A stretch of DNA of 38,284 nucleotides from Hormoscilla sp. (GTDB taxonomy: Bacteria; Cyanobacteriota; Cyanobacteriia; Cyanobacteriales; Desertifilaceae). Of this stretch, positions 1,704 to 21,527 are shown piece after piece. Made by a program: the position numbers and the translations under genes. Under the pieces are notes generated by a model. It did no database searches, was not told the DNA's origin, and worked only from the letters and a program-made list of their open reading frames with translations. The stretch lies in assembly GCA_051439505.1 (NCBI GenBank), contig JBFRWI010000220.1:1-38284 (forward strand), given 5' to 3'. Numbering within the stretch: position 1 is the stretch's first letter; each line of letters opens with the position of its first letter.

Positions 1704-1973
1704 AAGCATGGACAGGGTCAGGAGATGCCGGTCAAAGCTGAGTGAGACAAGGGGTCGCTTTGGCAAGGGCGGCTGAAATCAAGGCCAGAGATGAAAGCGG
1801 ATAACTTGTTTGGTTACGGCCAAAAGAGAAGTGCCGACGCTCAAGCGCTGAACTTAAGAGTCTGCAAGAGAGGTATCCCGACGATCGGGCTCCGAGCTAA
1901 TATGGAGATTGTCGCCCTCTCCATAGCAAAGAGATAGAAAAATATCAAAAGTTGTCAACAAAAGGTAATTATT

Positions 1974-2672
1974 GTGAGTATAAACATTACTCAAACAAAA
2001 ACAGCCAATACAGCAAATACAGTCAGTAGTTTTGATGCAGTCAAGGAAGCCCACAAGCTTGAGGGAAATGCCGAACAGCTCGAAGAGTACTACGATGGAT
2101 GGGCGAAGAGCTATGACAGCGATGTAGACAACGAAGATTACAGTGGCCCGACTTACATTGCGGCCTATTTTGATTTGTTGCCCAAGCAAGAAGGCAAGTT
2201 TTTGAATTTACGCAATCAAAAGCTGGAAATCCTAGATGCAGGCTGTGGAACGGGCCTTGTCGGTCTGGAGTTACGTCGCAAAGGCTATCACAATATTGAT
2301 GGGTTCGATCTTTCCCATGATATGGTGAAGGAAGCATCAAAAACAGAGGCTTATCGCGATTTAAAGGGTGGATGTGACATGACTCAACGCATCGAAGCCT
2401 ACCCGGATAATCACTATGATGCGGCCATTAGTTGCGGGGTTTTCACCCTGGGTCATGTGCCACCGACAGCCCTGGAAGAGATGATTCGCTTTACTAAGTC
2501 TGGCGGGTTAGTAGTTGTGAGCACTCGCAAAAGCTATTACGACAGCACGGATTTTAAAGGGGTTTGCGAGCAACTCCAAGCAGAAAACAAGGTCAAGCTG
2601 ATTAGCTACATTATTGACGGTCCCTACATTGCCGAAGAAGGTGCTCACTACTGGGCTTTTCAAGTTTGCTAA
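1974..2672 (+). CDS. Class I SAM-dependent methyltransferase (METTL27/WBSCR27-like)
   Basis: Motif I ILDAGCGTGLVG, GFDLSHDM, YDAAISCGVFTLGH and N-terminal YYDGWAKSYD. GTG start with AAAGGT upstream. Confidence 0.85.
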   Translation: MSINITQTKTANTANTVSSFDAVKEAHKLEGNAEQLEEYYDGWAKSYDSDVDNEDYSGPTYIAAYFDLLPKQEGKFLNLRNQKLEILDAGCGTGLVGLELRRKGYHNIDGFDLSHDMVKEASKTEAYRDLKGGCDMTQRIEAYPDNHYDAAISCGVFTLGHVPPTALEEMIRFTKSGGLVVVSTRKSYYDSTDFKGVCEQLQAENKVKLISYIIDGPYIAEEGAHYWAFQVC

Positions 2673-2760
2673 AGTATTGGGCATGGCCGAGAGAATCTCT
2701 GGTAGTTATTGCCCGCTGGTTGTATGGCCAGAGCAAGGGCAAGAAAAATTGCTCTGCTCC

Positions 2761-2886
2761 TAAGCTGTCGTGCATTTAAATTGCATGGACCTACGCCTGA
2801 GATCCTTGTTATGGTCGGAGTTTCCCCTTCGCGCAGCGTGGCGCAGCCATATTTGGAATTATGAATTTGGAATTTTGAATTGCTTA
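2761..2886. mobile_element. Short dispersed MITE-like element, copy 2 (inverted relative to 171-308)
   Basis: TAAGCTGTCGTGCATTTAAATTGCAT...GTGGCGCAGCCATATTT...TTTTGAATTGCTTA is the reverse complement of the ends of 171-308. Confidence 0.7.
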
Positions 2887-3132
2887 AGTGGGTGGCTCTA
2901 ATGGGTTGCGTCTAGGTAAAGCGATCGCTACTCGGTTCATTATGTGGCATAGCTCCACGTGGATTCTCAAGAGGGTGCCAGAAAATCAAGAATATTGCTA
3001 TGATGGCAATATTATTGATTCTTGTGCTGACCCTGTTATATTGCAGGAAGCACAATCGAAGATGCGATCGGGCTTGTTTGGCCCTGGTTACGATCGTGCT
3101 AATTACTACATGAATAAGGAGGAGAAAAAGAA

Positions 3133-4071
3133 ATGGGATTGCCAGTGATATCCTTGGCAAAATTGAAAGACATCAAGGATTCAAACTCAGGGAATGAAGA
3201 ACACAAGCGTCTCTATGACGTCTGTTACAATCATGGTTTTTTCTATTTGAAAGATCATGGCATTTCAGCAGAGTTGGTTCAGCAAACGATCGATGCATCT
3301 CGGAAGTTTTTTGAGTTGGGAGAAGAAATCAAAAAAGCCTACGGTCACGACAAACAAACCGTTCATCCCCAGACATCGAGAGGCTACAGTCCCCTATACG
3401 GCGAAACCCTCAATGGAGAGAGTGGTGCCGATCCCAAGGAAATTTTTGACATCGGCAGAGACCGTCCGCCCTCAGATCTGCCTTTTACTGGTCCGAACTT
3501 GCTTCCTGATGACACTACAGCCCCAGGTTTTGCGGCCTGCCATTTGAAGCTTCAAGAGGAGATATTGACCAAAATTGTTCCCTCCCTTGTCAGGGGACTG
3601 GCAGTTGCATTGAACCTAGAAGCAGATTGGTTTGACCCTTATTTTGACGATCCGGTCTTAATCCATCGAACTGTTTACTATCCAGGTGCATATGCATCGG
3701 CAGGAAAACACACAGACACTGGCATTTTTACGGTGTTAATCCAAGAGTATTTCCCCACCCCTTCTCTACGGGTTTATGCCAACAATGCCTGGATTGATGC
3801 TGAATGTATAGAAGATACATTTGTCATCAACTTGGGAGATATGTTGCAATACTGGACGAATGGCTTATTCGTCAGCACTGCCCATGAAGTAATTCACAAA
3901 CTTCCCTGCAGTCGAGTGTCCATCCCTGTATTTGTATTTCCAAATACAAATACGATAATTGAGCCAATGGGAACGGATGAAAAGATCAATTCGACCGAGA
4001 TTATGGTGAAAAATTTTGAGTCAATTTGGGAGGATAAAACTGGGTCAGGTCGGGCTAAGGAATTGAAGTAA
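3133..4071 (+). CDS. 2-oxoglutarate/Fe(II)-dependent oxygenase, isopenicillin N synthase-like family
   Basis: DIOX_N-type LPVISL...GFFYLKDHGI, iron ligands HTD...H (KHTDTG; STAHEV), INLGDMLQYWTNG and the RxS motif (SRVSIP). RBS AAGGAGGAG lies upstream. Confidence 0.9.
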   Translation: MGLPVISLAKLKDIKDSNSGNEEHKRLYDVCYNHGFFYLKDHGISAELVQQTIDASRKFFELGEEIKKAYGHDKQTVHPQTSRGYSPLYGETLNGESGADPKEIFDIGRDRPPSDLPFTGPNLLPDDTTAPGFAACHLKLQEEILTKIVPSLVRGLAVALNLEADWFDPYFDDPVLIHRTVYYPGAYASAGKHTDTGIFTVLIQEYFPTPSLRVYANNAWIDAECIEDTFVINLGDMLQYWTNGLFVSTAHEVIHKLPCSRVSIPVFVFPNTNTIIEPMGTDEKINSTEIMVKNFESIWEDKTGSGRAKELK

Positions 4072-4141: not shown

Positions 4142-4277
4142 GTCCTGGGAACTATCCTAGAGGTTCAGCCTCGGGTTGGAGAAGCTGGAGGCTTAGCCTC
4201 CAGAGGATCGTTCCCAGGTAAGCTGGAGGCAGAGCCTCAGAAGGGGCGTTCCCAGCCAGAGACTGCCCACGAGAAAA
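4142..4277. repeat. Palindromic dispersed repeat (GAGGC-N-GCCTC hairpins, GTTCCCAG arms); its last 30 bp recur at 5306-5335
   Basis: Hairpins CTGGAGGCTTAGCCTCCAG and GAGGCAGAGCCTC. GTTCCCAGCCAGAGACTGCCCACGAGAAAA is identical at 4248-4277 and 5306-5335. Confidence 0.7.
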
Positions 4278-4731: not shown

Positions 4732-5028
4732 TTGCGCTATCAGATTGCATTCTCGACAAATAGCTTGGCTCACTTGCGAATGCTGACGGTTCGACAACAG
4801 AGAATTATTATGGCAGCCGTTACCGAACAACTTGCCTATGAGCCAAACGTACCCACGCGCAACCGCAAACAAATGCGACCCAACCTCCTTGCAGTTTGGG
4901 AATTGCGGATTGATAATATTCGCGTTTACTATGATATAGAGGAGGATGAAGATGTAGTGGATATCCGTGCTATTGGCATTAAAGAAGGCAATCAAGTTTT
5001 TATTGAAGGGAAAGTGGTAGAATTATGA
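4732..5028 (+). CDS. Type II toxin, RelE/ParE superfamily
   Basis: 98 aa, YQIAFS...WELRIDNIRVYYDI...IRAIGIK pattern, RBS AAAGGAG and TTG start. It overlaps the next gene by ATGA. Confidence 0.85.
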   Translation: MRYQIAFSTNSLAHLRMLTVRQQRIIMAAVTEQLAYEPNVPTRNRKQMRPNLLAVWELRIDNIRVYYDIEEDEDVVDIRAIGIKEGNQVFIEGKVVEL

Positions 5029-5273
5029 GAAAAGTAGAAATATCTGAAGCTGAGGCCCCTTGGGCAGAGTATGTACAAGATCGAGAGCCGATTGTTTTAA
5101 CCCGTGATGGTCAACCAGTTGCGGCAGTGGTTCCCATCGAAGGCATCGATCTGGAGACGCTTATGGTGAGCATGAATCCTAATTTTATTGATATTATTGA
5201 GCGATCGCGCCAAAGTCAAAAAGAACATGGTCGGATATTTTTGGAAGAAGTCCGTCAGGAATTGGGAATATAG
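5025..5273 (+). CDS. Type II antitoxin, Phd/YefM family
   Basis: 82 aa with EPIVLTRDGQPVAAVVPI and C-terminal LEEVRQELGI. Coupled to the upstream toxin (toxin-first order). Confidence 0.85.
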   Translation: MRKVEISEAEAPWAEYVQDREPIVLTRDGQPVAAVVPIEGIDLETLMVSMNPNFIDIIERSRQSQKEHGRIFLEEVRQELGI

Positions 5274-5475
5274 TAGGGTGCCCAGTGCCCTTAGCTTGGT
5301 CGAAAGTTCCCAGCCAGAGACTGCCCACGAGAAAATTTTAGCCCGCGCAGGCGGTTGCCGCGCTGCGCTCGCAATGACATTGCTTTGTTTGTGTAGCCGG
5401 ACCCTTTAGGGTTCGGGCACGTTCGGGCACGAGGAAATGTGATATATTCAGTATGTACGATCGGGCTGAACTATT

Positions 5476-6582
5476 TTGAGTGAATCTTGTCCCACCGTTG
5501 CTCCCGGGCAACCCCTGACTCCTTTACAAAGAACGGCACTGCAATTGGTCGCTCGTCTCCATGGCGGGCGCGATGTGGTGCTGGCGATCGACCTAACGGA
5601 GAGTGTCGGTTTGAATGAAGAAGGTCGCCTGCGCCTGCGTCAGATTGTCTCAGATAGCTTGCAACCGCTCGATACTGTCTATGTCGTTCCTTTTGCCTCA
5701 ACCGTCGCCCCTCTAGAAGCCCCGATCGCATTCAAGAGCAATTCAGATGTCGATCGCATCATCCCAGGGATAGAATCTCAGTCGGATGGCAATTTCCGCA
5801 ATACAGATATTCAGCTTGCCGAGCTATCTATCTATCAGAAGCTGGCCCAAATTAATCAATGTCGCTTGACAGAAAATCAAGCAATTAAACCCCAGTCCGT
5901 GGTTTGGATTACCGATGCGCCTCTGGGTACAAAATTAGGCTCGGAATGGATTGAAACTCCTTTTGAGAGCGCATTTAGAAAAGAAAATTCTATCCCCAGT
6001 CAGCAGCGACGCGCTTGGATGCAATCTCTCCCCCTGCAAGAGCGATCGCTCTCCATTAGAACTAAGGACGAGCAAGTATATCAACTGACTGTGGTGGATA
6101 TTCCGCCGACGGTGCAGGAGTTCTGCACTCCCGCCCCCGGGGGCAAAGAAACCTGCTTGGTAAATGCTTACCTCTGGGGGCAATTGTGGTTACCGACTGC
6201 CGGTTTGGCGATCGGATTAATTGCCATCCTGTTTGCAGTAAAGACTTGGATGAGTTGGCAAAAGAAATGGCAGTTGATCGTGGATTTTGCTTCCGGACAG
6301 GAGGAACAAATATGTTATCTGCGACACAATCAACGGATCGCGATCGGGGAGTACGATGGTAATTGCGTTGATGCCATTGACTGTCCCGGGGATCCAGTGA
6401 GAGCATATTTAGAACGAAAAGGGAATAGTCTTTACCTAGTGCCAACCGGGTCAGGAAAAATTGATTGCAATGGCAGAGAAGTTACTCAGCGGACTCGCCT
6501 ATCTGGTAACCAGATGAGGCTGAATTGTCCCGATGGGAATAATCGCGATTTTGAACTCGCGATCTCAATTAAAAAATCCTAA
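5476..6582 (+). CDS. vWA-domain membrane protein with C-terminal FHA-like domain
   Basis: MIDAS-like VVLAIDLTESV, NTDI and VVWITDA; one TM helix (LWLPTAGLAIGLIAILFAV); beta-rich C-terminus (RIAIG...AYLERKGNSLYLVP...NGREV) resembling FHA. The TTG start is uncertain. Confidence 0.75.
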   Translation: MSESCPTVAPGQPLTPLQRTALQLVARLHGGRDVVLAIDLTESVGLNEEGRLRLRQIVSDSLQPLDTVYVVPFASTVAPLEAPIAFKSNSDVDRIIPGIESQSDGNFRNTDIQLAELSIYQKLAQINQCRLTENQAIKPQSVVWITDAPLGTKLGSEWIETPFESAFRKENSIPSQQRRAWMQSLPLQERSLSIRTKDEQVYQLTVVDIPPTVQEFCTPAPGGKETCLVNAYLWGQLWLPTAGLAIGLIAILFAVKTWMSWQKKWQLIVDFASGQEEQICYLRHNQRIAIGEYDGNCVDAIDCPGDPVRAYLERKGNSLYLVPTGSGKIDCNGREVTQRTRLSGNQMRLNCPDGNNRDFELAISIKKS

Positions 6583-6628
6583 CCTGTGGGATTATCGTTC
6601 GATTGCATGTTAAAATTATACGGGGAGT

Positions 6629-7399
6629 ATGGTGAAAAAAACTCAAGAATGGATCGAGAAGAAGCAGATATTTTTAGAGCAAGAAGACCTTCAGCACGTA
6701 CAGAAAGACTATGCCCAACGAAATCATATTGAAGGCAAAATAGTCGATGGTAGACTTGGACAGTTTCATAAAGATGTACACAGCCTCACTTACGATCCGG
6801 ATAGACTAGAGCGCGCCTATGACAAATATGCCCATGAGTATGATGAATTACTCCTGGAACTTGCTGGAGATGGCACATCCGGCTGTAGTCACTATACGAC
6901 CTTGTTTTTTAGTAGAGTTGTACCTATACAGAAAAATCTGCGCATCTTGGATGCAGGTGTGGGTACGGGCATCGGTGGAGTTGAACTGATTAATTTAGGC
7001 TATACACCGCTGGAGATCGTTGGCGTCGATCTGTCTTCAAAAATGTTGGTGCAGGCTGAAAAGCGAGGGGTTTATGAAGCACTTCATCATGCTCGCTTTC
7101 CAGAAACAGGTGATATTTTGCAGTCAGATGAGTTTGATGCGGTCTTATGTGCTGGAGGATTTAGCCATTCAGCGATGCCTGAGGTGGCGATGCCTGAGTT
7201 CGCGAGAGTCACCCGACCTGGAGGCTTCGTTGTGTTTAGCGTGCGCCAATCAGTCTATGAAGAATCTAACTCTCAAATGAAGGCTATGGTAAGTCGATTA
7301 GAGGAAGCTCGCGTCTGGGATGTTGTTGCTCAAGAGTGTGGAGCATACCTACCTGCTGATGGAGTGAAAGCGGTATACATTGCCTGTCGCGTTTGCTAG
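6629..7399 (+). CDS. Class I SAM-dependent methyltransferase (METTL27/WBSCR27-like)
   Basis: AYDKYAHEYD, ILDAGVGTGIGG, GVDLSSKML, FDAVLCAGGF, RVTRPGG. RBS GGGGAG. Confidence 0.85.
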   Translation: MVKKTQEWIEKKQIFLEQEDLQHVQKDYAQRNHIEGKIVDGRLGQFHKDVHSLTYDPDRLERAYDKYAHEYDELLLELAGDGTSGCSHYTTLFFSRVVPIQKNLRILDAGVGTGIGGVELINLGYTPLEIVGVDLSSKMLVQAEKRGVYEALHHARFPETGDILQSDEFDAVLCAGGFSHSAMPEVAMPEFARVTRPGGFVVFSVRQSVYEESNSQMKAMVSRLEEARVWDVVAQECGAYLPADGVKAVYIACRVC

Positions 7400-7452
7400 C
7401 ATATAGGTTGTTGCAGCCGGGGAGTACGATGGGGGTTTTGACCACACCCAGC

Positions 7453-7579
7453 AAAAATTGATTATAATGGCAGAGAAGTTACTCAGCGGACTCGCCTATC
7501 TGGTAGCCAGATGAGGCTGAATTGTCCCGATGGGAATAATCGTGATTTTGAATTCGCGATCTCAATCAAAAAATCCTAG
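7453..7579 (+). repeat. Direct-repeat copy of the last 127 bp of the vWA gene (6456-6582)
   Basis: Hand alignment gives 7 mismatches in 127 bp, ending on the stop codon (TAA vs TAG). A further 15-bp piece CGGGGAGTACGATGG (6345-6359) recurs at 7418-7432. Confidence 0.95.
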
Positions 7580-7603
7580 GGTGGGCACCGCCCACCATTG
7601 CCT

Positions 7604-7679
7604 CCCAACCTACGAACTTGACATCAATTTAATACCAAAGCCAGTTGGGTTTCGTGCCTCTACCCAACCTACGAATTAC
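7604..7679. repeat. Copy of the 66-bp REP-containing unit also arrayed at 12271-12445, preceded by REP TAGGGTGGGCACCGCCCACC (7577-7596)
   Basis: CCCAACCTACGAACTTGACATCAATTTAATACC...GTTGGGTTTCGTGCCTCTACCCAACCTACGAATTAC is shared with 12271-12445. Confidence 0.85.
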
Positions 7680-7705
7680 TGTCTAGTAAATACATTATAC
7701 ATCAA

Positions 7706-8686
7706 CTAAGTATTTTGGTCAGTAATTATTAAATCTGCGATCAAAGGTAGATGATCTGAACCTATATTTTTACCAGTTTTTATTTTGATAACTCTAATAT
7801 CTTGACTTACCAAACAATGGTCTATTGGAAGAGATAATAGCGGGTTGAAGCTTGGCCAAGAAGGAATTATCCCAAAGCCTTTTCGCGCATTATACAGTCC
7901 GGAATTACGAATTAAATTCTTATAAAATGGAGACCACATCGTTATATTCAAATCCCCAATGACTACAGTTGAGCTTTTCTGATTTGCTACATAACTGGCA
8001 ATTTCTGATAGCTGTTTATTCCGCAAATTAAACCCATCTTTGTCAATAGCAAAGCTGGGATGGGTTGCTAATATTGAGAGAGTTTTTCCCTGAATCTCGA
8101 TTTGGGTACTTACGGTTTTTCTTCCTCCCCCTAAATCTTGTATCGATGTATTTTTTAGAGGTATCTTACTATAAACTGCTATTCCTAAATTTACATTTTT
8201 ATCGAAAATAATTTGTGGATCTTGATGAATCACCCAATAAGAATAATCTTTTTGTAAAAGTTCTAATTTTTCTGCCCAAGCATCAGTCACTTCTATAAAT
8301 ATGGCTACATCGGGATTTTCTTCTTTTACTTCAGAGATTAATCGCTCATACTGTTGGTTCTTATATAATACATTCGCTTGCAAAAATCTTATTTTGCGAT
8401 CGCTCGGATCTTTGATTATATCTCGGGAAATATAAAACGGGATTACTTCTAATAAATTAATCGTCAGGCAGAATAAACTAATCAGCAACCATACAGGATT
8501 GCCAACCCATAAAAAAAACGATATCCCCAACAAGCTCAGAAATGTATATTGGATTTTCAAATGACAGGTTAGTTCGAGCAGATAGTGAAACTTCCCTAAA
8601 TAACTAGCCAGAGAACATAGAGTCACTAAGACGATGGTAATGACAAAAATCAAGTAGATTAGTTTTTCTATCCCCAAAATATCCAT
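7706..8686 (-). CDS. Membrane-anchored endonuclease/exonuclease/phosphatase (EEP) family protein
   Basis: Three N-terminal hydrophobic segments, then QANVL, PDVAIFIE, VIGDLN, PIDHCL and GSDHLP. AT-rich. Confidence 0.85.
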   Translation of the reverse strand: MDILGIEKLIYLIFVITIVLVTLCSLASYLGKFHYLLELTCHLKIQYTFLSLLGISFFLWVGNPVWLLISLFCLTINLLEVIPFYISRDIIKDPSDRKIRFLQANVLYKNQQYERLISEVKEENPDVAIFIEVTDAWAEKLELLQKDYSYWVIHQDPQIIFDKNVNLGIAVYSKIPLKNTSIQDLGGGRKTVSTQIEIQGKTLSILATHPSFAIDKDGFNLRNKQLSEIASYVANQKSSTVVIGDLNITMWSPFYKNLIRNSGLYNARKGFGIIPSWPSFNPLLSLPIDHCLVSQDIRVIKIKTGKNIGSDHLPLIADLIITDQNT

Positions 8687-8888
8687 AGGCTTTAATAAAT
8701 CCCTCCCTCGTCTGACGATACCATTAGTGGCACTTGCCCTTCTAGAGTGTCGGTACTGATACCGGGTACCAGAGCATTGATATCTCTAAGATAGCTGCAC
8801 TCCGAGACCCGGTCTCACCCTTGCTACTCGACGCTCTAGGAGACCTTAAATGATTATACCATTTTATTGGTGAAGCCTTTATGGCAAG

Positions 8889-9959
8889 TCAGCTCTTTTC
8901 CAGAGGAACGCCACCTCCCTGGCTGGACCGGTAGGCTGCTTCGACGCAGGACATGGTGACGAAGGCATCTTCCACCGAAGTGGGCAAGGGGCGAGATGGG
9001 TCTTCCAACTTGCGCATCAGGCTGGACATGGAACCGATGAAGGCTTCGGGGAACCACGACCCCCGGATCTCGTGGCGTTGCCACGACCCTTCGCCCTCCC
9101 CCCGCAGCAGGCAGACTTCAAATTCATCGCCAGTTCCCTTGGGATAATCCATCAGCACGCCCAGGCGGATCTTGATGGCTCCTTGGGTGCCCTCGAATTT
9201 CAAATAGGATTCCTGATGTTTCAGACCAAACTCATGACAGTGGTTGGTATTGATGGTGGCCCGGACAAACTCGCCATAGTCCAACATCAAGGTCGTGCGC
9301 ACCGAGGCCATCTTCATCATCTTGGGGTGCTTGACCGTTTTGGCGTAAACCCCCTTGGGATCCCCCAAGAATGAGCGGATGAGGTCGATATAGTGGATGC
9401 TGTGGTAAAGGATTTCCACCCGCTGGCACTTTTCCAAGAAGTCCCATAAATGCCAGGGGGTGTAAACCGTGACCCGCATCTCAATGTCGTGAAGCTCGCC
9501 CAGGTGACCTTCTTCGATCAGGTGGCGGGCCGCAATCACTGGCGGTGCCGTGCGCAACTGAAAATTAACCGCCGCAGTGTACTCCCGTTCGCGACAGATG
9601 CTCAACACCTGACGTGCCTGAGCTAGATCCTCGCCCATGGGCTTTTGGATCAATATCCCAGCCCCGAGGGGAAACTTGGGCAGCAGCCCCGGCAAAGCCG
9701 AAGCCGGTACCGCGATATCGAAGACTGCGTTTGCTGGAGCATTGGCTACAGCTTCTTCAACACTAGCGTAAACTTTGGGAATGGAGAATTTTTGAGCTAG
9801 CGATACTGCTTTGGACTGCTTGATATCAATAATTCCTGCTACCTTAAAACCAGCGATCTGATATGCTGGCAGGTGAGCATCGGATACAATGCCACCAGCA
9901 CCGATAATTACTATGGGTCGCGGCTGGTCGGGCATGGGAATTTGGTCGTCGATCTGCAT
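8889..9959 (-). CDS. Gfo/Idh/MocA family NAD(P)-dependent oxidoreductase
   Basis: IIGAGGIV, LIQKPMG, AVNFQLR and YHSIHYID. The start is placed at ATG 9959 (RBS GGAG) because the longer ORF begins inside a repeat. Confidence 0.88.
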   Translation of the reverse strand: MQIDDQIPMPDQPRPIVIIGAGGIVSDAHLPAYQIAGFKVAGIIDIKQSKAVSLAQKFSIPKVYASVEEAVANAPANAVFDIAVPASALPGLLPKFPLGAGILIQKPMGEDLAQARQVLSICREREYTAAVNFQLRTAPPVIAARHLIEEGHLGELHDIEMRVTVYTPWHLWDFLEKCQRVEILYHSIHYIDLIRSFLGDPKGVYAKTVKHPKMMKMASVRTTLMLDYGEFVRATINTNHCHEFGLKHQESYLKFEGTQGAIKIRLGVLMDYPKGTGDEFEVCLLRGEGEGSWQRHEIRGSWFPEAFIGSMSSLMRKLEDPSRPLPTSVEDAFVTMSCVEAAYRSSQGGGVPLEKS

Positions 9960-9968
9960 GACTCCACT

Positions 9969-10071
9969 TAAAAAATTCAAAATTCACAATTCACAATTCA
10001 CAATTGGGAAAGCCATTGAGAACAAGGGTTTCAGCTTTTCGGCCTATGCAATTTAAATGCGTGACAGCTTA
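9969..10071. mobile_element. Short dispersed MITE-like element, copy 3
   Basis: AATTCAA/AATTCAC heptamers, then TTTCGGCCTATGCAATTTAAATGCGTGACAGCTTA as in 171-308. Confidence 0.65.
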
Positions 10072-10154
10072 TTGGCTGACAAGTCCCTCAAACTGTAAAG
10101 GGTAATGTCTACTTTTTCTAGTATATAGCAAGGCTAAATCAATGGTTTAAGAAA

Positions 10155-10976
10155 TCACTTGATTTTTTTCCGTTTAGAGAAAATCAAGTCTATATATCCC
10201 CGTTTAGCTATGCGATCCTTCAGTAATTCACTGCTAGCTATTTCTAATTCCCCTATTTTATTAATCACGTACATAGAATAGTTTTTCTCTTGAAAAAAAT
10301 AGAGCAAGTCTGTTGGAGAAAACCCTAGTTCAGTTAAACTGCTTGGCATATATTCTAAAGCCACTACTACATCAGGATTAGCTGCCAAAGTTTTGGCCAT
10401 TCCTAAACAAACAGGTAATTCATATCCCTGAACATCAATTTTGATAAATTTTACAACTTTATTTTCCAATTTTTCTGCTACAAAACTGTCAACAGACAAC
10501 ATAGGAACAGAAGAAATCTTACTTAAATCAATCCCAGATTCCTGATATTCTTTAGTAGCGATTCTGTGATCGGCATGATGGTTTTCGTTATGCCAAAGTT
10601 GTACGGTGCCGTTGCTGTCTCCCACAGCAGCTTGAATCGGAATAATTTTTTCAATGGACTTGTGGACTTTGATAATTTCCCGAAGACTCAAAAAGTTTGT
10701 TTCATCAGGTTCAAAAGCATAGACAGTAAACCCGGGAGTCATTGCTTTAGAGAAAATCGTAGCGGTATAGCCTATATTTGCCCCAATATCTAATATGTTT
10801 CCTCCTTTGAAAATATCGGGATACTGCTGAGTTAGTCCCCAAAAAGGATCTTCTAAATATTTTTTATATAAAAAATAACAAAACCAGAATATTTTTTTTA
10901 ACCAGGGATTTCCTAGTAAACCAGTCTTATTGACTGAGCTATAGATAGATAGTAATAATTTCTGAAAAAATGGCAT
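10155..10976 (-). CDS. FkbM family methyltransferase
   Basis: ILDIGANIG, VYAFEP, AAVGD and FIKIDVQGYE. Confidence 0.9.
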   Translation of the reverse strand: MPFFQKLLLSIYSSVNKTGLLGNPWLKKIFWFCYFLYKKYLEDPFWGLTQQYPDIFKGGNILDIGANIGYTATIFSKAMTPGFTVYAFEPDETNFLSLREIIKVHKSIEKIIPIQAAVGDSNGTVQLWHNENHHADHRIATKEYQESGIDLSKISSVPMLSVDSFVAEKLENKVVKFIKIDVQGYELPVCLGMAKTLAANPDVVVALEYMPSSLTELGFSPTDLLYFFQEKNYSMYVINKIGELEIASSELLKDRIAKRGYIDLIFSKRKKIK

Positions 10977-11082
10977 TGATTATTCACCTATAGATATAAT
11001 TTTGCTGGAGCAGTTAACAAAGTATTAATCCCTCCCAATCCTCCTGGGGGAATTAGTGTTTTTCAATTGGGAGTATGTCAGA

Positions 11083-11853
11083 TCACGTCCTAACCTGTAA
11101 GGCAGTATGTAAAATCATATTTAAAAGTTGGAAACCGCCTTGGATATGTTTAATATTTGATTTCCCATAAGTCCTTGGTAAATATTTTACAGGAATATCC
11201 TGAATAGTTAAGCCAAGTTTTTGGCACCCAATGAGCAAATCAAAATCTCCAAAAGGATCGTATTTACCAAAGTCTGGCCAATTGGCTACTATCTGGAGAT
11301 AGTTTTCTTTGGTAATAGCTTTAGTTCCACAAAGGGAATCCTTAATTTCGACTCCCAATATGATTGATAGCAGTTTAGCCAAAAAGCGATTAGCAAGTTG
11401 ATTGAGCAATGGCATCGCTTTCAATGATACTGGATAGGTCAGTCGCGATCCATTCGCCATCTGACAATCACCTGAAGCGATCGCATCGAAAAATTTGGTT
11501 AATTCTTCGGGCTGAACGGTTAAGTCAGAATCTAGAATGATCAGGACATCACCTGTTGCCATGTTAAAACCCTGACGAACAGCATCGGCTTTTCCTTCAC
11601 CATTCTGCTGACATATTTTGATATCCCATTGCTCCTGATATAAACTCTTAACTCTCTTGATTTCTTCCCAAGTATTGTCTGAGGAATTCTTCTCAATAAA
11701 GATAATTTCTGTATGCTTGCCTAGTTTTGGCATTTTGGTAATGCAATCTTCAATATTACCGGCTTCGTTTCGGGCGGGTATAATTACACTTGCAGTCATT
11801 TGATAACCGGTGAATTCTTTTTGACAGGTATGGTATTCGAGATTTCTTTCCAT
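11083..11853 (-). CDS. Glycosyltransferase family 2 (dolichol/undecaprenyl-phosphate glycosyltransferase-like)
   Basis: SVIIPARNE, SSDNT, GKADAVRQG, ILDSDL, GSR and DSLCGTK. The start is placed at ATG 11853, which has AGGAGA 8 nt upstream. Confidence 0.88.
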   Translation of the reverse strand: MERNLEYHTCQKEFTGYQMTASVIIPARNEAGNIEDCITKMPKLGKHTEIIFIEKNSSDNTWEEIKRVKSLYQEQWDIKICQQNGEGKADAVRQGFNMATGDVLIILDSDLTVQPEELTKFFDAIASGDCQMANGSRLTYPVSLKAMPLLNQLANRFLAKLLSIILGVEIKDSLCGTKAITKENYLQIVANWPDFGKYDPFGDFDLLIGCQKLGLTIQDIPVKYLPRTYGKSNIKHIQGGFQLLNMILHTALQVRT

Positions 11854-12169
11854 TGAGATGATCTCCTGACTTTCTTCCTTAGGTATGACTGAGATACACC
11901 AGGGGGCGGGAGCCATACAGCAAAGACACTTATGTAACTTCTCACCGGTCTCGGGGCCGCGATCGGGTCGCGCCCCCTGGGCTTTCACAGTAATTAAACC
12001 ACGCTCACTCAAGTTGCGACCTACACAAACACAATGCCCAAATTTGCTGGACCCTGCCCTTTTCTAGTGCCAATATAGACTATCTTCATTTTGCCAAATA
12101 GCCTTTCTCAAAAACTCCGTCTTAGGTTATAAAACAACTCCGTCTTCAGGTCTATTTTTCGATGTAGCA

Positions 12170-12258
12170 ACTGACTGAGATGTACCAGGGGGCGGGAGCC
12201 TGGTCACGAAGGGTTTACAGCGATGAACATGTCTCTTGACTCACATTAAGCCGTCAGT
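12170..12258. mobile_element. Possible internally deleted IS/MITE remnant
   Basis: Imperfect inverted ends ACTGAC...GTCAGT. The left 29 bp (12172-12200, TGACTGAGATgtACCAGGGGGCGGGAGCC) recur with 2 mismatches at 11886-11914. Confidence 0.4.
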
Positions 12259-12270
12259 AAACAGCTAAAC

Positions 12271-12445
12271 TTAATACCTTGGCCGGTTGGGTTTCGTGCC
12301 TCTACCCAACCTACGAATTACGAACTTGACATCAATTTAATACCTTGGCCGGTTGGGTTTCGTGCCTCTACCCAACCTACGAATTACGAACTTGACATCA
12401 AATTAACACCAAGTCCAGTTGGGTTTCGTGCCTCTACTCAACCTA
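12271..12445. repeat. Tandem array of a 66-bp unit (~2.6 copies) containing the REP-like hairpin GTTGGG-TTTCGTGCCTCTA-CCCAAC
   Basis: Units start at 12271, 12337 and 12403. Confidence 0.9.
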
Positions 12446-14306
12446 TAAACTCCTGCACAATGGTTCCCGATCGCCTGGTGCTGGTGGGCGGTGCCCACCC
12501 TACTTTTTGACTGGTTGAGTTTCGTGGCTCAAGCAAACCTGCGATATTCAACTTTACACGATCGCGTAATCGTTGGCCGACTTTTTCTATCAGTTCTCCG
12601 ACTAACGTTTGCATTTGGGGCTTGAAGAAAATTTCTATGATTGCTAATGCCTCTTGACGATCTAAATTTGTCAATTCCAGGATCTGGGACTGAAGTTTTT
12701 GCAGCATTTCCTGGTTGAGATATTGCCAATTACCTGGGTTAGATGCAAGTACCAAACCTATTTTGGCTGTCACTTCCTCGAAGCCATTCACCAAAAGTGA
12801 TTCTGTTCCTGTTACTATTTCATCCACTAGGGCCCTGCGCACTGGCGTTCCCTGGTTTGAGTATAAAAACTCTAAGCTGCCAGTCAAAACGGTTCGCATA
12901 TTCCATTCGGGACTATCTCGCATCTGAGATAAGAGTACCTCTAATAACTCCCACCTGATTTTCCCATTTTCCCACAAGAGTTCTTGCAGACAGGAAGTCA
13001 ATTTTTTATCCGTCAACAATCTTTGGGCCACATAGGGATATATTTGACCAAATGGCTTCAACTCGGGATTGACTGCGATCGCCACTCCTTCTAAGGTTGC
13101 TAAGGAGCGAAAAATGAGCAAATAATAAGTAGGCAAGCGAAAGGGATGCTTGTAGATCAATGGGGAAAGCTTCTTAATCACGCTATTGATGCCAAATTCC
13201 GTTACCGAAGCAGTCAACACCTTGCCAAAAATATCCGCTAGTTCGGGAACGAGAAAGTTCAGATCGGTTTCCGGGGGCAAAAACCCTAGCTTAACATAAT
13301 CTTGGGCTAATCCTTCAAAGTCACCCGTGAGGATATGCATAATAGATTCGATGAAGCTATAGCGATATTCGGCGGTCACAAAGCTCATCATCCCGAAGTC
13401 TATATAGGCTAACTTACCCTCGGGGGTCGCTAATAAATTCCCCGGGTGGGGGTCCGCATGAAAAAAGCCGCTTTCCAGCAGTTGTCGCACGGAACAGTTG
13501 TATCCGAGATTGACAAAGTGGACCCCATCAAAGCGGCCACTATTCAACTGTTCGATTTCAGTTAATTTTACTCCTGCAATCCATTCCATTGTCAGCACCC
13601 GCTGGCCGGTATATTCCCAGTAAATGCGCGGGACGATAATGTTATTGTTGTTGGCATACAGTTTCCCAAAGCGTTCGGCATTGCGACCTTCGTTGATGTA
13701 GTCTAATTCTTCAAACAAGCGGCTAGCCAATTCGTCGATCAGGGCCATGAGATCGCTGTGAATGAAGGAGATAGATTTTTGCGCCCAGGCGGCAATTTGC
13801 CGCAGGATGTAAAGATCTAGGGAAATGCTCGATCGCAAACCCGGACGCTGCACCTTTATTGCTACGGTTTCCCCGGTTTTTAGTTTTCCTTTATAAACTT
13901 GCCCGAAGGAGGCGGCGGCCACGGGTTCGGCACTGATTTCGGCATAGATGCGATCGGGTGTTTGTCCCAGTTCTTCGGCGATCAATTCATAGGCGATCGC
14001 ATTGGGGAAGGAAGGTAATTGGTCTTGTAAATTGGTAAGTTCTTCAATATATATCGGCGGAATGATGTCGGGACGACAGGAGAGGATTTGTCCCAGTTTA
14101 ATGAAAGTCGGTCCCAGTTGGGTCAGGATTTGCCGCAGTTGCACCGCCCTAGGGGGCTGATTTTTCTGGATGCTACCGGTCAACCAGTCCCATAGCAAAG
14201 GGATGGCAAAGCCGACTGAGGTGCGGAAAATCGTCAAGCGCCGTCCCCATAGCAGTCCCGGACGCTGGCGATAAGACTTGTTCAAGGCTTGTGGATCGTA
14301 ATGCAA
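12438..14306 (-). CDS. ABC1/AarF/UbiB family atypical kinase
   Basis: LGPTFIKLGQILS, LQD, VAAASFGQVYKG, AIKVQRP, EELDY, FFHADPHPGN and YIDFGM. The TTG start is uncertain. Confidence 0.92.
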   Translation of the reverse strand: MHYDPQALNKSYRQRPGLLWGRRLTIFRTSVGFAIPLLWDWLTGSIQKNQPPRAVQLRQILTQLGPTFIKLGQILSCRPDIIPPIYIEELTNLQDQLPSFPNAIAYELIAEELGQTPDRIYAEISAEPVAAASFGQVYKGKLKTGETVAIKVQRPGLRSSISLDLYILRQIAAWAQKSISFIHSDLMALIDELASRLFEELDYINEGRNAERFGKLYANNNNIIVPRIYWEYTGQRVLTMEWIAGVKLTEIEQLNSGRFDGVHFVNLGYNCSVRQLLESGFFHADPHPGNLLATPEGKLAYIDFGMMSFVTAEYRYSFIESIMHILTGDFEGLAQDYVKLGFLPPETDLNFLVPELADIFGKVLTASVTEFGINSVIKKLSPLIYKHPFRLPTYYLLIFRSLATLEGVAIAVNPELKPFGQIYPYVAQRLLTDKKLTSCLQELLWENGKIRWELLEVLLSQMRDSPEWNMRTVLTGSLEFLYSNQGTPVRRALVDEIVTGTESLLVNGFEEVTAKIGLVLASNPGNWQYLNQEMLQKLQSQILELTNLDRQEALAIIEIFFKPQMQTLVGELIEKVGQRLRDRVKLNIAGLLEPRNSTSQKVGWAPPTSTRRSGTIVQEFIG

Positions 14307-14585: not shown

Positions 14586-17500
14586 ATGAAATCTACCGGT
14601 AACGAAGGACAGTTTCGCGGTATTAACCGCACGATTTGTATCGGATTAGGCGGAACGGGTCGCGACGTGTTGATGCGCATCCGCAGGTTAATTGTAGACC
14701 GCTATGGGGATTTGAGCAACCTACCAATTGTCAGTTTTGTCCACATTGACACTGATAAAGCAGCGTCCCAAGCATCGGGTTTGCGCACGGGGAGTACCTA
14801 TCATGGTGTTGACCTCAGCTTTCGGGAGGCGGAAAAGGTGAATGCGACTATGACTTCCACGGAAGTGACTAATTTTGTCCGGGGATTGGAAGGTCGAGAG
14901 ACATTCGATCGCCAAGGGCCCTACGCTCATATTGGTCGCTGGTTTCCCCCGCAACTGCTGCGAAACATTAAAGCAGTAGAAGAGGGTGCCAAAGGGATTA
15001 GACCTGTGGGTAGATTGGCTTTTTTTCATAACTATCGCCTGCTGAAAGGGGCAATAGAAGCAGCAGAACGGCGCACTCGGGGACATGAGGCCAGTTTACT
15101 CAAATCAGGGTTAAAGGTCGATCGGGGACTGAATATATTTGTGGTCTGTTCTCTCTGCGGCGGCACTGGTAGCGGCATGTTCCTGGATGTTGCTTATAGT
15201 CTCAGGCGAGATTACGGCGATCGGGGGGCCCAAATTGTCGGCTATTTAGTAATTAGTCCTCACTTGTACGGTAACGCGCCCAATATGAGCGCTAATACCT
15301 ACGCTGCGTTGAAAGAACTGAATCATTATACAACTCCGGGCACCAAGTTTGAAGCTTGTTACGATATGCGAGAATTGGCGATCGTGCAGGAAGAACGTCC
15401 GCCCTTTGACTACGCCTATTTAGTTTCCCACCAGACTTCGGGCCCCTATGAAATTTTTGCCCAAAGTAAGCTATGTAACGTGATTGCTCGGAAAATATCT
15501 CTGGACTTTTCCAGCGAACTGGGACCCGTGATGAAGGGGATGAGGGATAATTTCCTACAGCAGTTGCTGCAATGGGACGACCACCCCCGTCCGAATGTCC
15601 AGCGCTATTTAACTTTTGGACTGGCGGCAATTTATTTCCCCCGGGATATTATCGTGCAAATTGCTTTGACTCGGATTAGTTGGCAACTGGTGAATTTCTG
15701 GTTGAATGGGGAAGGACAAAGTCCCGATCCGCAACTGTTACTGGAACGTTTCCTGCTCACTTGGCATACGGATCTAAATCGTCGAGATGGGTTCGCTACT
15801 AAGCTGGAAGCTGCTGCGACAGAAGGTAACAAGAATTTTAGAAGTGCAATTAATGCCTGGAGGAATAAGCTAGAAAGAAGAATTGCTGATTGCCAAAATA
15901 AGGAAGATCGGATGGCCCTCAGACAGCAGTTGCCCCGGGAGTTTCGCGAACAATTCCGCAAAAATATGGCCGGAGATACGGAAAGTAGCCGTGGGATTTG
16001 GTTGACTAGGTTGCAACAGATTCGTCCCAGTCTGACAGCAAAATTACAGCGGGAGATTGATGGCTTTTTGGCGACTTTACTCACTCCGGGAAACCGGGAT
16101 TTCTCCATTAAAAGTACCCGGGACTGGTTGGAGGCGATCGCCACGGAACTGAATGCTTGGCAACGGGCGCTTGAAGAGCAAATTATGGAGCAAGGGGGGA
16201 CGCGCCAACTGGAAGATTTAGAGCGCCAATGGCAAGATGCCGAGCAGATAATTGCTGATATCGAGCAGAAGTTTAGACCCGTAGGGAAAAATGCTCAAGT
16301 GCAAGGGGAAGCGAAAAGGGTTCTGGGGCAAGTATGCGAGACGATCGAGCATAATTTTAACTTGGCAGTGAAGCAGGAATCCCTGCAAATTGTCAAGACT
16401 TTGCAAAAGCAGGTGCAAACCAGATCGACCAAAGTGGCGGCTTTCAGTCTGTTATTAGAAAATTTGCAGAGTGATTACGAACAAGCGGAAAGGAACTTGA
16501 AGCAACTGAATTTTGATGAGATGAGTGGGGAGGCAATCTTTGAGGAATCAGATTTAGAAAGTTGTTATAATATCTTGTTGCCACCAAAGGAATTTCGCTC
16601 TCAGTTGGTGCAAGTGAGTGGGGAATTACCCTCGGGACGGGGAGAATCTCTCGCTGGTTTGATCGGGGGCGATCGCCTGACGCCCAAACAACTGCAAAAG
16701 GAAATCGACCTGACAGTCGATCGGTTGTTTGGTTCTCGCAGCACGAATATTGTGAATTCGGCGATCGCCAGCTTCATGGAAAACTACTCCAGCGCCACCC
16801 GATCGACCCGCTTGGGACAAATTATGCAGGAAGCTGCGCCCCTGCTGCGCCTGAACTTGAGCGACCCCTATTTCCGCAATAGCGAGTCCAAAAGTAGTAC
16901 GATCGTGGGGTTTAAGGATGCGGACGAGCAGGAAATAAAAGAGTTCAAAGCCTTACTGAGAGAGGAGTTAGGAATTGCCGACGCCGTACTGAAGCCAACC
17001 CAAACCTCCTCGGAAATTTTAATCGTGACCGAGTACGCTGGTTTTCCCTTGAGACTGATCGAGGGTTTAGAGGAGATGCGCAAACCCTACAGTCGTCAAA
17101 AGAATGCCCCGGGATCTTTTGTCCATAACGACCATAACAGTTTATTTGCTGATATCATCCCTCCCGATGCGGGCACAATGGAGGAATTGGAGGATCTGTT
17201 CTATTCTTGCCTCGCCTTTAATTTAATTCAGCAAAACTCGGAAAAGTTGCAATTTCAATATTATGATAGCTTGCGAGATGGCTACCATACTGCTACTCTC
17301 AGTCCCGTCTGGCATCAAGCCCTCGAAGAACTCGCTAACCGAGAAGATTTGATTGCAGCTTTGCGCTCACTGCTGTCCCGGGCGATCGGGGAAATAGAAA
17401 AACAGCCCTCCCGCTGGAAAGGACATTATTTACCCAAGCTGCGACAATTTGTTCATCAAGTGGATAATTTACCAGAATCTGATGCTAATTATGCCTACAG

Positions 17501-17822
17501 AACTACGGTAGTGGGAATTCCCGCCACTACCGAAACGATCGCTAAGGAGGGGGCGATCGATCGCTTTCGCCGTCGCCTCAAAGAACAGTTCCAGTCCAAG
17601 CAGAAGCAAAAACCCATGCTGACTCAAAGTCCTCGCCAGGTGATTAAAGGTGAAATTATGCCAGCGGACGATCGACCTCGCACTCAAACACAAACTAAAA
17701 CTAAAACTCGGGGGGCGGAAGATGGGATGGCAAAACTGAAGCAGTTAGTGCAGATGAAAAAGGAGGGATACTTGACAGACGCCGAATTTGAAGCTGCCAA
17801 AAAACGCCTCTTAGGTCTTTGA
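14586..17822 (+). CDS. Tubulin/FtsZ-like GTPase (Tubulin_2/FtsZ-like 1 type) with long helical region and C-terminal SHOCT domain
   Basis: ICIGLGGTG, FVHIDTD, GAKGIRPVGRLAF, tubulin signature SLCGGTGSG, ANTYAALKEL and PPFD. C-terminal KLKQLVQMKKEGYLTDAEFEAAKKRLL fits SHOCT. Confidence 0.9.
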   Translation: MKSTGNEGQFRGINRTICIGLGGTGRDVLMRIRRLIVDRYGDLSNLPIVSFVHIDTDKAASQASGLRTGSTYHGVDLSFREAEKVNATMTSTEVTNFVRGLEGRETFDRQGPYAHIGRWFPPQLLRNIKAVEEGAKGIRPVGRLAFFHNYRLLKGAIEAAERRTRGHEASLLKSGLKVDRGLNIFVVCSLCGGTGSGMFLDVAYSLRRDYGDRGAQIVGYLVISPHLYGNAPNMSANTYAALKELNHYTTPGTKFEACYDMRELAIVQEERPPFDYAYLVSHQTSGPYEIFAQSKLCNVIARKISLDFSSELGPVMKGMRDNFLQQLLQWDDHPRPNVQRYLTFGLAAIYFPRDIIVQIALTRISWQLVNFWLNGEGQSPDPQLLLERFLLTWHTDLNRRDGFATKLEAAATEGNKNFRSAINAWRNKLERRIADCQNKEDRMALRQQLPREFREQFRKNMAGDTESSRGIWLTRLQQIRPSLTAKLQREIDGFLATLLTPGNRDFSIKSTRDWLEAIATELNAWQRALEEQIMEQGGTRQLEDLERQWQDAEQIIADIEQKFRPVGKNAQVQGEAKRVLGQVCETIEHNFNLAVKQESLQIVKTLQKQVQTRSTKVAAFSLLLENLQSDYEQAERNLKQLNFDEMSGEAIFEESDLESCYNILLPPKEFRSQLVQVSGELPSGRGESLAGLIGGDRLTPKQLQKEIDLTVDRLFGSRSTNIVNSAIASFMENYSSATRSTRLGQIMQEAAPLLRLNLSDPYFRNSESKSSTIVGFKDADEQEIKEFKALLREELGIADAVLKPTQTSSEILIVTEYAGFPLRLIEGLEEMRKPYSRQKNAPGSFVHNDHNSLFADIIPPDAGTMEELEDLFYSCLAFNLIQQNSEKLQFQYYDSLRDGYHTATLSPVWHQALEELANREDLIAALRSLLSRAIGEIEKQPSRWKGHYLPKLRQFVHQVDNLPESDANYAYRTTVVGIPATTETIAKEGAIDRFRRRLKEQFQSKQKQKPMLTQSPRQVIKGEIMPADDRPRTQTQTKTKTRGAEDGMAKLKQLVQMKKEGYLTDAEFEAAKKRLLGL

Positions 17823-17836
17823 TAAGCATCCTCGTC

Positions 17837-18010
17837 ACCCCGAAACCCCCACCCGAAACCCCCACCCGAAACCCCCACCCGTCACCCCCACCCTAAAGGG
17901 TAGGGCTACAAGAACAAAGCCCGCCTGCGCGGGCTGAAGAAAATTACCATTCTTATGTCTGAGATAACCTTCCCCGCCACCCCGAAAACCCCACCCGAAA
18001 CCCCCACCCG
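17837..18010. repeat. 13-nt CCCGAAACCCCCA repeats surrounding a palindromic segment that is duplicated at 21332-21495
   Basis: CCCACCCTAAAGGGTAGGGCTACAAGAACAAAG...GCCTGCGCGGGCTGAAGAAAATTACCATTCTTATGTCT at 17887-17960. Confidence 0.8.
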
Positions 18011-18478
18011 GGAACCACCCGGGAACCTCTACTTTAACTGGAAGCCTAGCCATCTAGGGCTGTCCCGGCTTAAGTTGGTAGCCGTAATTTAGGTCGATCC
18101 TGTTAAAATGGCTGAAACCCTGAGCCTGGGTAGAATGACCTGATCGACCTAAAAGTCCCTCGGTGAAAGGGTTTGATGCCAATTTAGGCCGTTTTTTTCG
18201 CAAAGTTCCCTTAGGTGGATTGTCATTCACTAAGCAAAAGAATTATAATGGAGGAGAAGCAGCAATGAGTGGTTGAGCTACAGTAATCTTTGATGCTCAG
18301 GCCACGGTTCGACCGGCAAGCTCTGGAGGCCAAAGTAGCCTGCGGCTTGGTGGGATAGATAGGCCAGTTGCGCTTGTCGAGACTTGATGAAGTCACGGAT
18401 GTGCTACGCAAACGAGCATTTTGGGGGATATGGAGCTTCCATAATCCTTGAATCGTAAATTTTTCCCAAGGAGGATCT

Positions 18479-21495: not shown

Positions 21496-21527
21496 TCGAT
21501 CTCCCTCACTTTGATAAAATACGCTAT

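Follow-up and report, generated by a model that had tools for sequence, protein, structure and literature searches.

A methyltransferase gene inserted behind a vWA-like gene of Hormoscilla sp. duplicated the 3' end of its host gene, probably by a single homologous crossover

Introduction

How small blocks of genes without mobility genes, such as toxin-antitoxin pairs, single enzymes or defence genes, move between genomes is still poorly understood. One footprint that such blocks can leave behind is the insertion with long target duplication (ILTD), reportedly described for the first time by Nobusato et al. in 2000. In an ILTD, a gene unit lacking mobility genes is bordered by direct repeats of more than 30 bp that are found as a single copy at the empty site; according to the parts of the survey by Furuta et al. 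used here, such insertions are known in several phyla, including in Microcystis, and in competent species, and were described without a mechanism (PMC2853133). A second precedent comes from E. coli cells that received donor DNA with homology on one side only: in the experiments drawn on here, 56 of the 60 integrants resulted from a single crossover of a re-circularised molecule that duplicated 109-950 bp of the gene-end locus, and just four resulted from homology-facilitated illegitimate recombination (HFIR), which deletes DNA (PMC3240628). Here, we analyse a scar of this general shape in the cyanobacterium Hormoscilla sp., where a gene encoding a class I S-adenosylmethionine (SAM)-dependent methyltransferase is located between two copies of the 3' end of a gene encoding a protein with a von Willebrand factor A (vWA)-like domain. 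The scar lies in a stretch of 38,284 nucleotides, called the window hereafter, which is one whole contig (C220; JBFRWI010000220.1) of an assembly of 232 contigs and 6.47 Mb that is 93% complete (GCA_051439505.1; G000 hereafter).

Results

The host gene of the scar (5476-6582, plus strand; gene calls are open reading frame (ORF) proxies throughout this study) encodes a protein of 368 aa with a MIDAS-like N-terminal domain, a predicted membrane segment and a C-terminal tail. Its only match of this kind, to VWA_2 (E 0.035), lies under the Pfam cut-off, so that the vWA label is a weak one, and searches of NCBIfam and of PDB sequences (the latter up to an E value of 1) with this protein gave no match. 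The tail of the gene is present twice. Copy A (6452-6582) is attached to the gene body, ends with TAA and is followed by new DNA, while copy B (7449-7579) is a stranded fragment that ends with TAG, has no usable start and is preceded by in-frame stops at 7397 and 7439. An initial annotation, made from the sequence alone, had described a 127-bp tail repeat, an additional 15-bp fragment and a single cargo gene between the repeats; we found all three, with a repeat of 130 nt: positions 6452-6581 correspond to 7449-7578 at a spacing of 997 nt and are 95% identical (123/130, seven mismatches). Pairwise alignment showed that the similarity of the two copies starts at about 6452/7449 and that their identity ends at the stop codon, the stop base bringing the count to eight differences over 131 nt. 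In the whole 6.47-Mb assembly, blastn detected each tail copy at these two sites only. Upstream of each copy, the exact 15-mer CGGGGAGTACGATGG is found at 6345-6359 and again at 7418-7432.

The insert between the tail copies is an 866-nt block (6583-7448) with a single long ORF, that of the methyltransferase gene (6629-7399, plus strand, 256 aa). A spacer (6583-6628), which has no counterpart in congeners or at other methyltransferase loci, separates the host stop from the methyltransferase start, and a partial third copy of the 15-mer (6621-6635; 12 of 15 bases, nine of them in one exact run) lies over the ribosome-binding site and start of the methyltransferase gene. The right junction (7400-7448) consists of 18 nt, the second 15-mer and 16 nt.

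The origin of this junction became apparent when contigs of four metagenome runs were placed on positions 5900-8000 of the window. In run X2, one contig runs up to 7417 and, after the 15-mer, continues with sequence similar to that from 6360 onward, thereby joining 7417 to what corresponds to 6345, and this contig and an adjoining one differ from copy A at six positions (6390, 6422, 6435, 6436, 6463 and 6467) at a depth of 77-90; the short junction, as in the window, has a depth of 34 in the same run. Therefore, the duplication began at 6345, where the 15-mer marks its left edge, and spanned at least 238 nt, while copy B of the window lost about 76 nt and left the right junction as a remnant. 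This long form, together with trimmed and stop-less copies at other loci, shows that copy B is a decaying remnant.

A DNA search over 41 genomes, namely G000 and 40 relatives, in which all but the four weakest matches were listed, showed what the locus looks like without its cargo. The vWA-like gene is present in three congeners (G001, G003 and G004) at 95-96% identity, and all three matches stop at the stop codon. In each of them, no more than about 85 nt separate the gene from the 3' end of an ABC1 kinase gene (window positions 12515-13925), and no methyltransferase gene is present. The 31 nt that follow copy B (7580-7610) are the flank found after the vWA-like stop in G004 and G003, while the DNA that follows copy A has no counterpart there. 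Since the flank after the congener stop matches that of copy B, copy B is the stranded original tail in its old context and copy A, the working end of the gene, joins new DNA. The scar is thus a real insertion that duplicated the 3' end of the vWA-like gene and left this gene intact, as the initial annotation had claimed.

The ancestral flank (7580-7610) also belongs to a dispersed repeat family (D4): the TAG stop of copy B, like that of the vWA-like gene of G004 and G003, is part of the palindromic dispersed repeat GGGTGGGCACCGCCCACC (window 7577-7600), which is found genome-wide. The vWA-like gene of G001 and copy A both end with TAA and are without this palindromic repeat.

The initial annotation had also suggested scanning the genome for other duplicated 3' ends. 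When the assembly was compared with itself, 446 local direct repeats were identified whose copies are 50-600 nt long, share at least 80% identity and lie no more than 8 kb from each other; 106 of them occur as two copies only. Ten of these 106 obey a strict rule: the end of one copy is no more than 8 nt away from the stop of an ORF that has 100 aa or more, and the partner is located downstream, in sequence not covered by ORFs. When the same pairs were shifted at random 1000 times, 0.35 pairs on average and three at most obeyed this rule, so that none of the shifts reached ten. The offsets between repeat end and stop cluster from -8 to +8 nt, with just three pairs at +30 to +34, and the repeats at the scars are 50-329 nt long. 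A first, cruder scan had retained 23 of 419 pairs, which was not clearly above a rough hand estimate of about 7-17 by chance, and our claim rests on the strict set.

Besides the vWA-like gene and a tubulin-family gene of the same contig (see below), the hosts of these scars include genes that are unrelated to them. On contig C38 (20779-22429), the last 127 nt of cobS are repeated around a UPF0175/DUF3368 toxin-antitoxin pair; a GT4 glycosyltransferase gene is followed by a PIN protein gene, a gene for a 157-aa protein by XisH/XisI, a PIN gene by a short-chain dehydrogenase gene, mutS2 by methyltransferase fragments and a DUF1822 gene by a DUF2283-like ORF. Behind a CHAT/TPR protein gene and behind a gene for a 117-aa protein, the insert is only about 150 nt of dispersed repeat. 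A PA14 protein gene (contig C53), with TerB and methyltransferase cargo, fails the strict rule, as the partner repeat overlaps a 132-aa ORF by 33 nt, and is counted only in the list of 11 scars. Toxin-antitoxin pairs and methyltransferases are frequent cargo across these loci. Counterparts at 5' ends, where the first bases of a gene are repeated upstream of it, numbered about eight by eye, and their edges lie off the start codon.

The cobS locus could be followed in other genomes. G002 has an empty site with the flank of copy B. In G001 and G004, a further start of the cargo, truncated (113 and 239 nt), stands behind the tail-cargo-tail arrangement, which suggests tandem amplification followed by decay, and G003 carries a variant. 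The GT4/PIN locus was uninformative, with just two short congener matches, both in G002. Altogether, the scar is not particular to the vWA-like and tubulin genes and likely reflects ordinary recombination-driven gene gain; the idea that these two genes are special sites of cargo capture or C-terminal exchange does not hold, considering that the same footprint is found at cobS, mutS2, GT4, PA14 and CHAT/TPR genes.

The second scar of the window, which the initial annotation had rightly recognised as the same pattern, is at a Tubulin_2 gene with a SHOCT tail (14586-17822, plus strand; Pfam E 1.6e-103). Its last 103 nt (17721-17823, copy A; family D8) are repeated at 19399-19501 (copy B) with 94% identity and a spacing of 1678 nt, and no further copies were found in the genome. 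The cargo (17823-19398, plus strand) has a low GC content and comprises dispersed repeats and an ORF of 261 aa (18479-19264) with a weak Endotoxin_N match. G001 is free of this cargo: its single tubulin tail is followed by the flank of copy B (19502-19527, the end of the plus-strand feature 19399-19527) and then by sequence from window position 21516 onward. In G004, the cargo is present at 94% identity, and of copy B only the last 69 nt are left, with a mutated stop; in G003, the flank is of the copy A type and lies at a contig end. The tubulin genes of G001, G003 and G004 are 95.4-96.9% identical to each other and 92.3-93.8% identical to that of G000, and a species tree of the genus genomes was based on three loci. 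Since G001 groups inside G001/G003/G004 while G000 and G004 both hold the tubulin cargo, the most simple explanation is that G001 lost this cargo precisely, by way of the two tails, with horizontal gain as the alternative.

Three observations concern the surroundings of this scar. An ATG-started SHOCT frame of 31 codons (19405-19500) persists in copy B of the tubulin tail, with four silent and two conservative changes compared to copy A; it is probably not a conserved gene, as it is truncated and without a stop in G004. A FAD/BBE oxidase gene located downstream (19604-21262) is absent from G001. Finally, dispersed repeats found after the tubulin stop (17876-17972; families D14 and D15) recur after the oxidase gene (21321-21507) with 90-91% identity.

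The bases at which the two vWA-like tail copies differ carry information on where each copy comes from. Over the 131 nt that include the stop, eight sites vary among the three congeners, and five of the eight differences between copies A and B fall on these sites with matching states, where about 0.5 would be expected by chance. The initial annotation had proposed asking which copy is closer to the alleles of cargo-free strains: at 6455, 6467, 6546 and 6582, copy A has the state of G001 and copy B that of G004 and G003, while this relation is reversed at 6509; of the other three differences, two are seen in copy B only and one in copy A only. The two tail copies thus look like different alleles of the population, and this sequence pattern suggests that one of them may have come with the cargo. 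Moreover, copies A and B diverge by 5-6%, compared to 3.5-4.4% between genomes in the body of the vWA-like gene, and yet the cargo is found only in G000. Since the divergence of the copies is about that between genomes although the cargo is restricted to one of them, a diverged donor fits better than an in-place duplication.

These observations are best accommodated by a Campbell-type insertion-duplication, in which the resident tail and an incoming tail linked to cargo underwent a single homologous crossover by general recombination, with no dedicated recombinase; we consider this origin on balance probable. The duplicated segment is homologous, with one copy on each flank and foreign DNA between them, which is the geometry of a Campbell-type event. 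The incoming DNA would have come from another strain or species of the genus, with its own gene tail and cargo. Homology between donor and recipient would have stopped at the stop codon, as intergenic DNA turns over fast, and this would have set the right edge of the repeat. In this genus, G001 on the one hand and G004/G003 on the other diverge from the first base past the vWA-like stop, so that the homology between incoming and resident DNA would end there, which would explain the sharp edge. With homology on one side only, the incoming molecule would have been circularised and integrated by one crossover; with copy A, the host gene would have kept its tail complete, and copy B, the other tail, would have been displaced behind the cargo. 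Later recombination between the flanking copies could then lead to precise loss, tandem amplification or gene conversion; otherwise, copy B would decay. The Campbell-type origin proposed by the initial annotation is thus retained in a recombinase-free form as the best-fitting mechanism, while its reading of the repeats as att-like sites is disfavoured.

Several observations weigh against such a crossover with a diverged donor. At three positions (6565, 6566 and 6579), copies A and B have the same base, which differs from that of all three congeners. The entire vWA-like gene is a mosaic of patches from different alleles, so that copy A could have acquired its pattern only after the insertion. 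The two cobS copies of G000 differ at only 3 of 127 bases, but each differs at 11-16 bases from the copies of other genomes, which fits gene conversion and fits an in-place duplication of the resident allele equally well. No donor was found either: DNA of the cargo methyltransferase gene was absent from the 40 relatives among the matches listed, and no vWA or tubulin gene lies within 4 kb of any of six loci with a homologue of the cargo. Finally, a contig of run X3 (depth 7.7) that joins 7328-7465 to 6469-6644, as a circle or a tandem array would, is explained equally well by a k=31 path through the 40-nt identical core of the tails and was not counted as evidence; in this run, the left arm of copy A and the right arm of copy B are uncovered.

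Part of these observations would be expected if the target had been duplicated in place, which we regard as a possible but distinctly less probable explanation. In that case, the cargo would have entered a break just past the stop, and 238 nt of the resident tail would have been copied during repair, either because the breaks were widely staggered or because replication switched templates at a microhomology. The two tails would then have been identical at the outset and both of resident origin; a mechanism of this kind, not further explained, was the one first considered for ILTDs. The three window-specific bases common to copies A and B, the cobS copies of G000 that are far more alike than they are to the copy of any other genome, and the lack of any donor with vWA-methyltransferase adjacency (among the matches listed in the 40 relatives and at the six homologue loci) all speak in its favour, and the partial third 15-mer at the left edge of the cargo (6621-6635) could be the microhomology used for template switching. 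Double-strand breakage was also proposed by Furuta et al., in the parts of their survey used here, as a common factor (PMC2853133). However, an in-place duplication leaves unexplained why the edge lies within 8 nt of the stop at ten loci, with three pairs at +30 to +34, as selection only requires an edge at or beyond the stop. It does not account either for the five of eight A/B differences that coincide with standing polymorphisms in matching states, and a divergence of 5-6% between the copies would need an old event, yet the cargo is found only in G000.

Integration at the 3' end of a gene in a way that restores this gene is typical of islands that carry an integrase. The repeats could accordingly be the attL and attR sites of a decayed or trans-mobilised island, whose integrase is elsewhere or lost, and the position of the insert exactly at the stop codon agrees with this. 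We nevertheless judge site-specific integration to be unlikely. The window has 67 ORFs of at least 80 aa; in a Pfam scan of 62 of them, the other five being nested same-strand ORFs, no recombinase or transposase family was found, in agreement with the initial annotation. Tyrosine recombinases (PF00589) had no match in the 93%-complete G000 assembly, while all 14 control genomes had matches, and the nine matches to PF00239 in the assembly are all on contigs other than that of the window. It may be added that contigs of mobile elements may have been lost from G000 during binning. Beyond this lack of a recombinase, the eleven host genes are different and their repeats unrelated, with lengths that vary from 50 to 329 nt; when the 11 junction pairs were compared side by side, no common motif was seen by eye, no formal motif search having been made. 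In addition, the left edge of copy B is a piece of a decaying pseudogene rather than a defined core.

The initial annotation had gone further and proposed that two genes of a putative system act as sites of cargo capture or C-terminal exchange. A reading in which the vWA-like/tubulin pair would recruit accessory genes or swap C-termini as part of its function is, in our view, very improbable. In its favour are the two scars on one 38-kb contig, at genes that are adjacent in seven of seven distant relatives: there, the vWA-like gene is directly followed by the Tubulin_2 gene on the same strand, so that the two genes form an old pair, split in this genus by the minus-strand ABC1 gene. Nothing relevant was found in a literature search that paired Tubulin_2 with vWA. 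Against a capture function, the same scar occurs at cobS, mutS2, GT4, PA14, CHAT/TPR and other genes, and the three congeners keep both genes without the methyltransferase cargo. The encoded tails differ by only three residues for the vWA-like protein (C/Y, N/S and L/F) and by two for the tubulin, and the interval that holds both genes is a patchwork of strain-specific insertions, so that a tolerant, variable region explains the clustering of the two scars.

The cargo encodes a small-molecule-type methyltransferase, with Pfam matches to Methyltransf_11 (E 9e-14), Methyltransf_25 and Methyltransf_12 and with NCBIfam matches that are all below cut-off (UbiE/MenG-like families); it does not belong to a DNA methyltransferase family, and the insert holds no restriction gene. 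Homologues with 75-81% aa identity are found in contigs of Moorena, Richelia, Xenococcus and Calothrix. We found no support for a functional link of the methyltransferase to the vWA/tubulin pair.

Two further observations concern genes of this kind. A region further upstream in the window (1905-4071) holds another methyltransferase gene (1974-2672) and a 2OG-Fe(II) oxygenase gene (3133-4071), with congener matches of only 78-81%, at other genomic places, and in a Moorena contig the homologue of the cargo methyltransferase is flanked by oxygenase homologues. The idea that the 3' end of the 2OG oxygenase gene resembles the start of the cargo methyltransferase gene over a longer stretch (3988-4013 and 6614-6639, respectively) was considered and discarded, as the alignment contained no more than a 26-nt patch, which was treated as chance.

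An assembly artefact, in which two strains of this metagenome-derived genome had been joined through their common tail, is about as improbable as a capture function. The assembly is in 232 contigs, the runs in which it is best represented are sediment metagenomes with strain variants, and in Logan contigs, built with k=31, it is ambiguous how the four arms are linked across the 40-nt identical core. However, contigs of run X1, at a depth of about 200, reproduce the junction 7159-7495 in its short form without a difference, and they tie the variants of copy B to both of its neighbours: one links the methyltransferase end to the variant bases of copy B, and another links these variants to the flank. 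The 40-nt core is also shorter than ordinary reads, and the same architecture is found at the tubulin and cobS loci in other assemblies, including a genome of six contigs.

A diversity-generating retroelement, of which the two copies would be template and variable repeats, shares with this locus only the geometry of a repeat of about 130 nt at a gene 3' end with a second copy nearby, and was rejected as next to impossible on its mismatch spectrum, since the differences are not adenine-specific (A at one of eight sites in copy B and two of eight in copy A) and track ordinary congener alleles; no reverse transcriptase family was found among the window ORFs scanned.

The interval around the scar holds other insertions. 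Directly behind the ancestral flank lies a second, separate island (7611-12453) with four genes of a sugar-modification type, for an EEP nuclease/phosphatase, a GFO/IDH/MocA oxidoreductase, an FkbM methyltransferase and a GT2 glycosyltransferase, all on the minus strand, that is absent from G001, G003 and G004. This 4.8-kb island has a GC content that varies from 0.33 to 0.57 and is bracketed by repeat units of 66-69 nt (family D3), one on its left and three on its right, and is another insertion between repeats. It is followed by the gene for the ABC1 atypical kinase (12438-14306, minus strand; identified with Pfam), the conserved right neighbour in the genus, which is 93.6-94.9% identical in the three congeners and stands there directly after the vWA-like gene.

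Just upstream of the vWA-like gene, a ParE/Phd-like toxin-antitoxin pair (4732-5273) is located between identical 30-nt direct repeats (4248-4277 and 5306-5335). Downstream of the tubulin region, a conserved ORF (21627-23273) matches ZorA-type anti-phage proteins of NCBIfam, but below threshold (E 2e-10; 40 bits, where the cut-off is 100). The same contig also carries HEPN(Swt1)-STAND NTPase and AAA/ATPase_2 genes (28731-32959 and 30312-30936), the second of which has long runs of 12-nt tandem repeats.

Discussion

G000 offers about eleven scars of one type, filled and empty sites among close relatives, a sharp edge at the stop codon and an informative pattern of alleles. The combined evidence favours a single crossover with one-sided homology over the other explanations that we weighed, and it provides a testable model for how genes may be gained without a recombinase, lost precisely and amplified. 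There is also a lesson for annotation: a stranded gene tail marks an old gene end and a recent insertion, not a functional element of a neighbouring system.

A more far-reaching possibility, which we consider speculative and rather doubtful, is that in repeat-rich cyanobacteria the stop codon acts as a general seam at which genes are gained and lost in a recombinase-free cassette economy, with tail-cargo-tail units that behave like an integron without an integrase. If that was the case, recombination between the two tails would free a circle made of one tail and the cargo, which could re-enter any cargo-free relative by one RecA crossover at the tail of the same gene. Units would then stack into arrays, as seen behind cobS in G001 and G004, and a toxin-antitoxin cargo would bias retention.

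Comparison with known systems

Among described systems, the MaOC1 toxin-antitoxin module of Microcystis aeruginosa is also a recombinase-free cyanobacterial cassette with direct repeats (two identical ones of 152 bp) downstream of a host gene. In the description used here, however, the MaOC1 repeats are intergenic, starting 14 bp past the stop, and come with inverted repeats, so that they are not a copy of a gene tail as in Hormoscilla sp. (PMC7935541).

The displacement of C-termini at Rhs and CdiA loci, and the stepwise one of effector-immunity modules of the type VI secretion system (T6SS) in Vibrio cholerae, resembles the scar in other respects: modules enter behind a conserved anchor, the old 3' part is orphaned downstream, arrays build up and, as far as the account drawn on here goes, no integrase is known (PMC5361080). 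There, the displaced tips are different toxins and the protein is changed, while here the C-terminus stays the same and the cargo lies past the stop (PMC5361080). A C-terminal displacement of the Rhs/CdiA type was therefore rejected for the vWA-like gene, as its tails differ by three residues and its cargo is a methyltransferase gene after the stop codon.

With HFIR, the locus has in common that foreign DNA is anchored by one-sided homology (PMC3240628, PMC5361080). In the experiments cited, HFIR couples insertion to a recipient deletion of similar size, whereas recipient DNA is duplicated here (PMC3240628). The insertion-duplications obtained in E. coli come closer: a segment at a gene end is doubled around foreign DNA, over 109-950 bp there compared to 50-329 nt across the scars and 238 nt for the long form of the vWA-like tail here, and no dedicated recombinase is involved, this outcome being about ten times commoner than true HFIR in the part of that study used here (PMC3240628). 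These integrants arose from a laboratory plasmid delivered by conjugation, while in Hormoscilla sp. the donor, its circular form and its entry route are inferred (PMC3240628).

The scar matches the published ILTD type most closely, so that it belongs to a kind of scar that is already known. Its direct repeat of 130 nt at 95% identity (at least 238 nt in the long form) compares with the repeats of more than 30 bp described for ILTDs; empty sites with a single tail are found in G001, G003 and G004, the last two sharing the flank of copy B; and the insert of 866 nt, where ILTD units are smaller than 20 kb, holds no mobility-related gene (PMC2853133). In the parts of the survey used here, ILTD repeats can also overlap the 3' end of a gene, and amplification through flanking repeats was proposed there as well (PMC2853133). 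The cargo is different, being restriction-modification genes in that survey and a small-molecule-type methyltransferase gene here, with toxin-antitoxin pairs and other genes elsewhere in the genome; this restriction-modification content defined the set that was surveyed, not the mechanism (PMC2853133). Two further differences set the Hormoscilla sp. scars apart from ILTDs as portrayed there: in this one genome, about ten repeats have their edge at the stop codon, and the two copies at the vWA-like gene carry what appear to be different population alleles, which argues that one of them arrived with the cargo instead of being copied from the target (PMC2853133).

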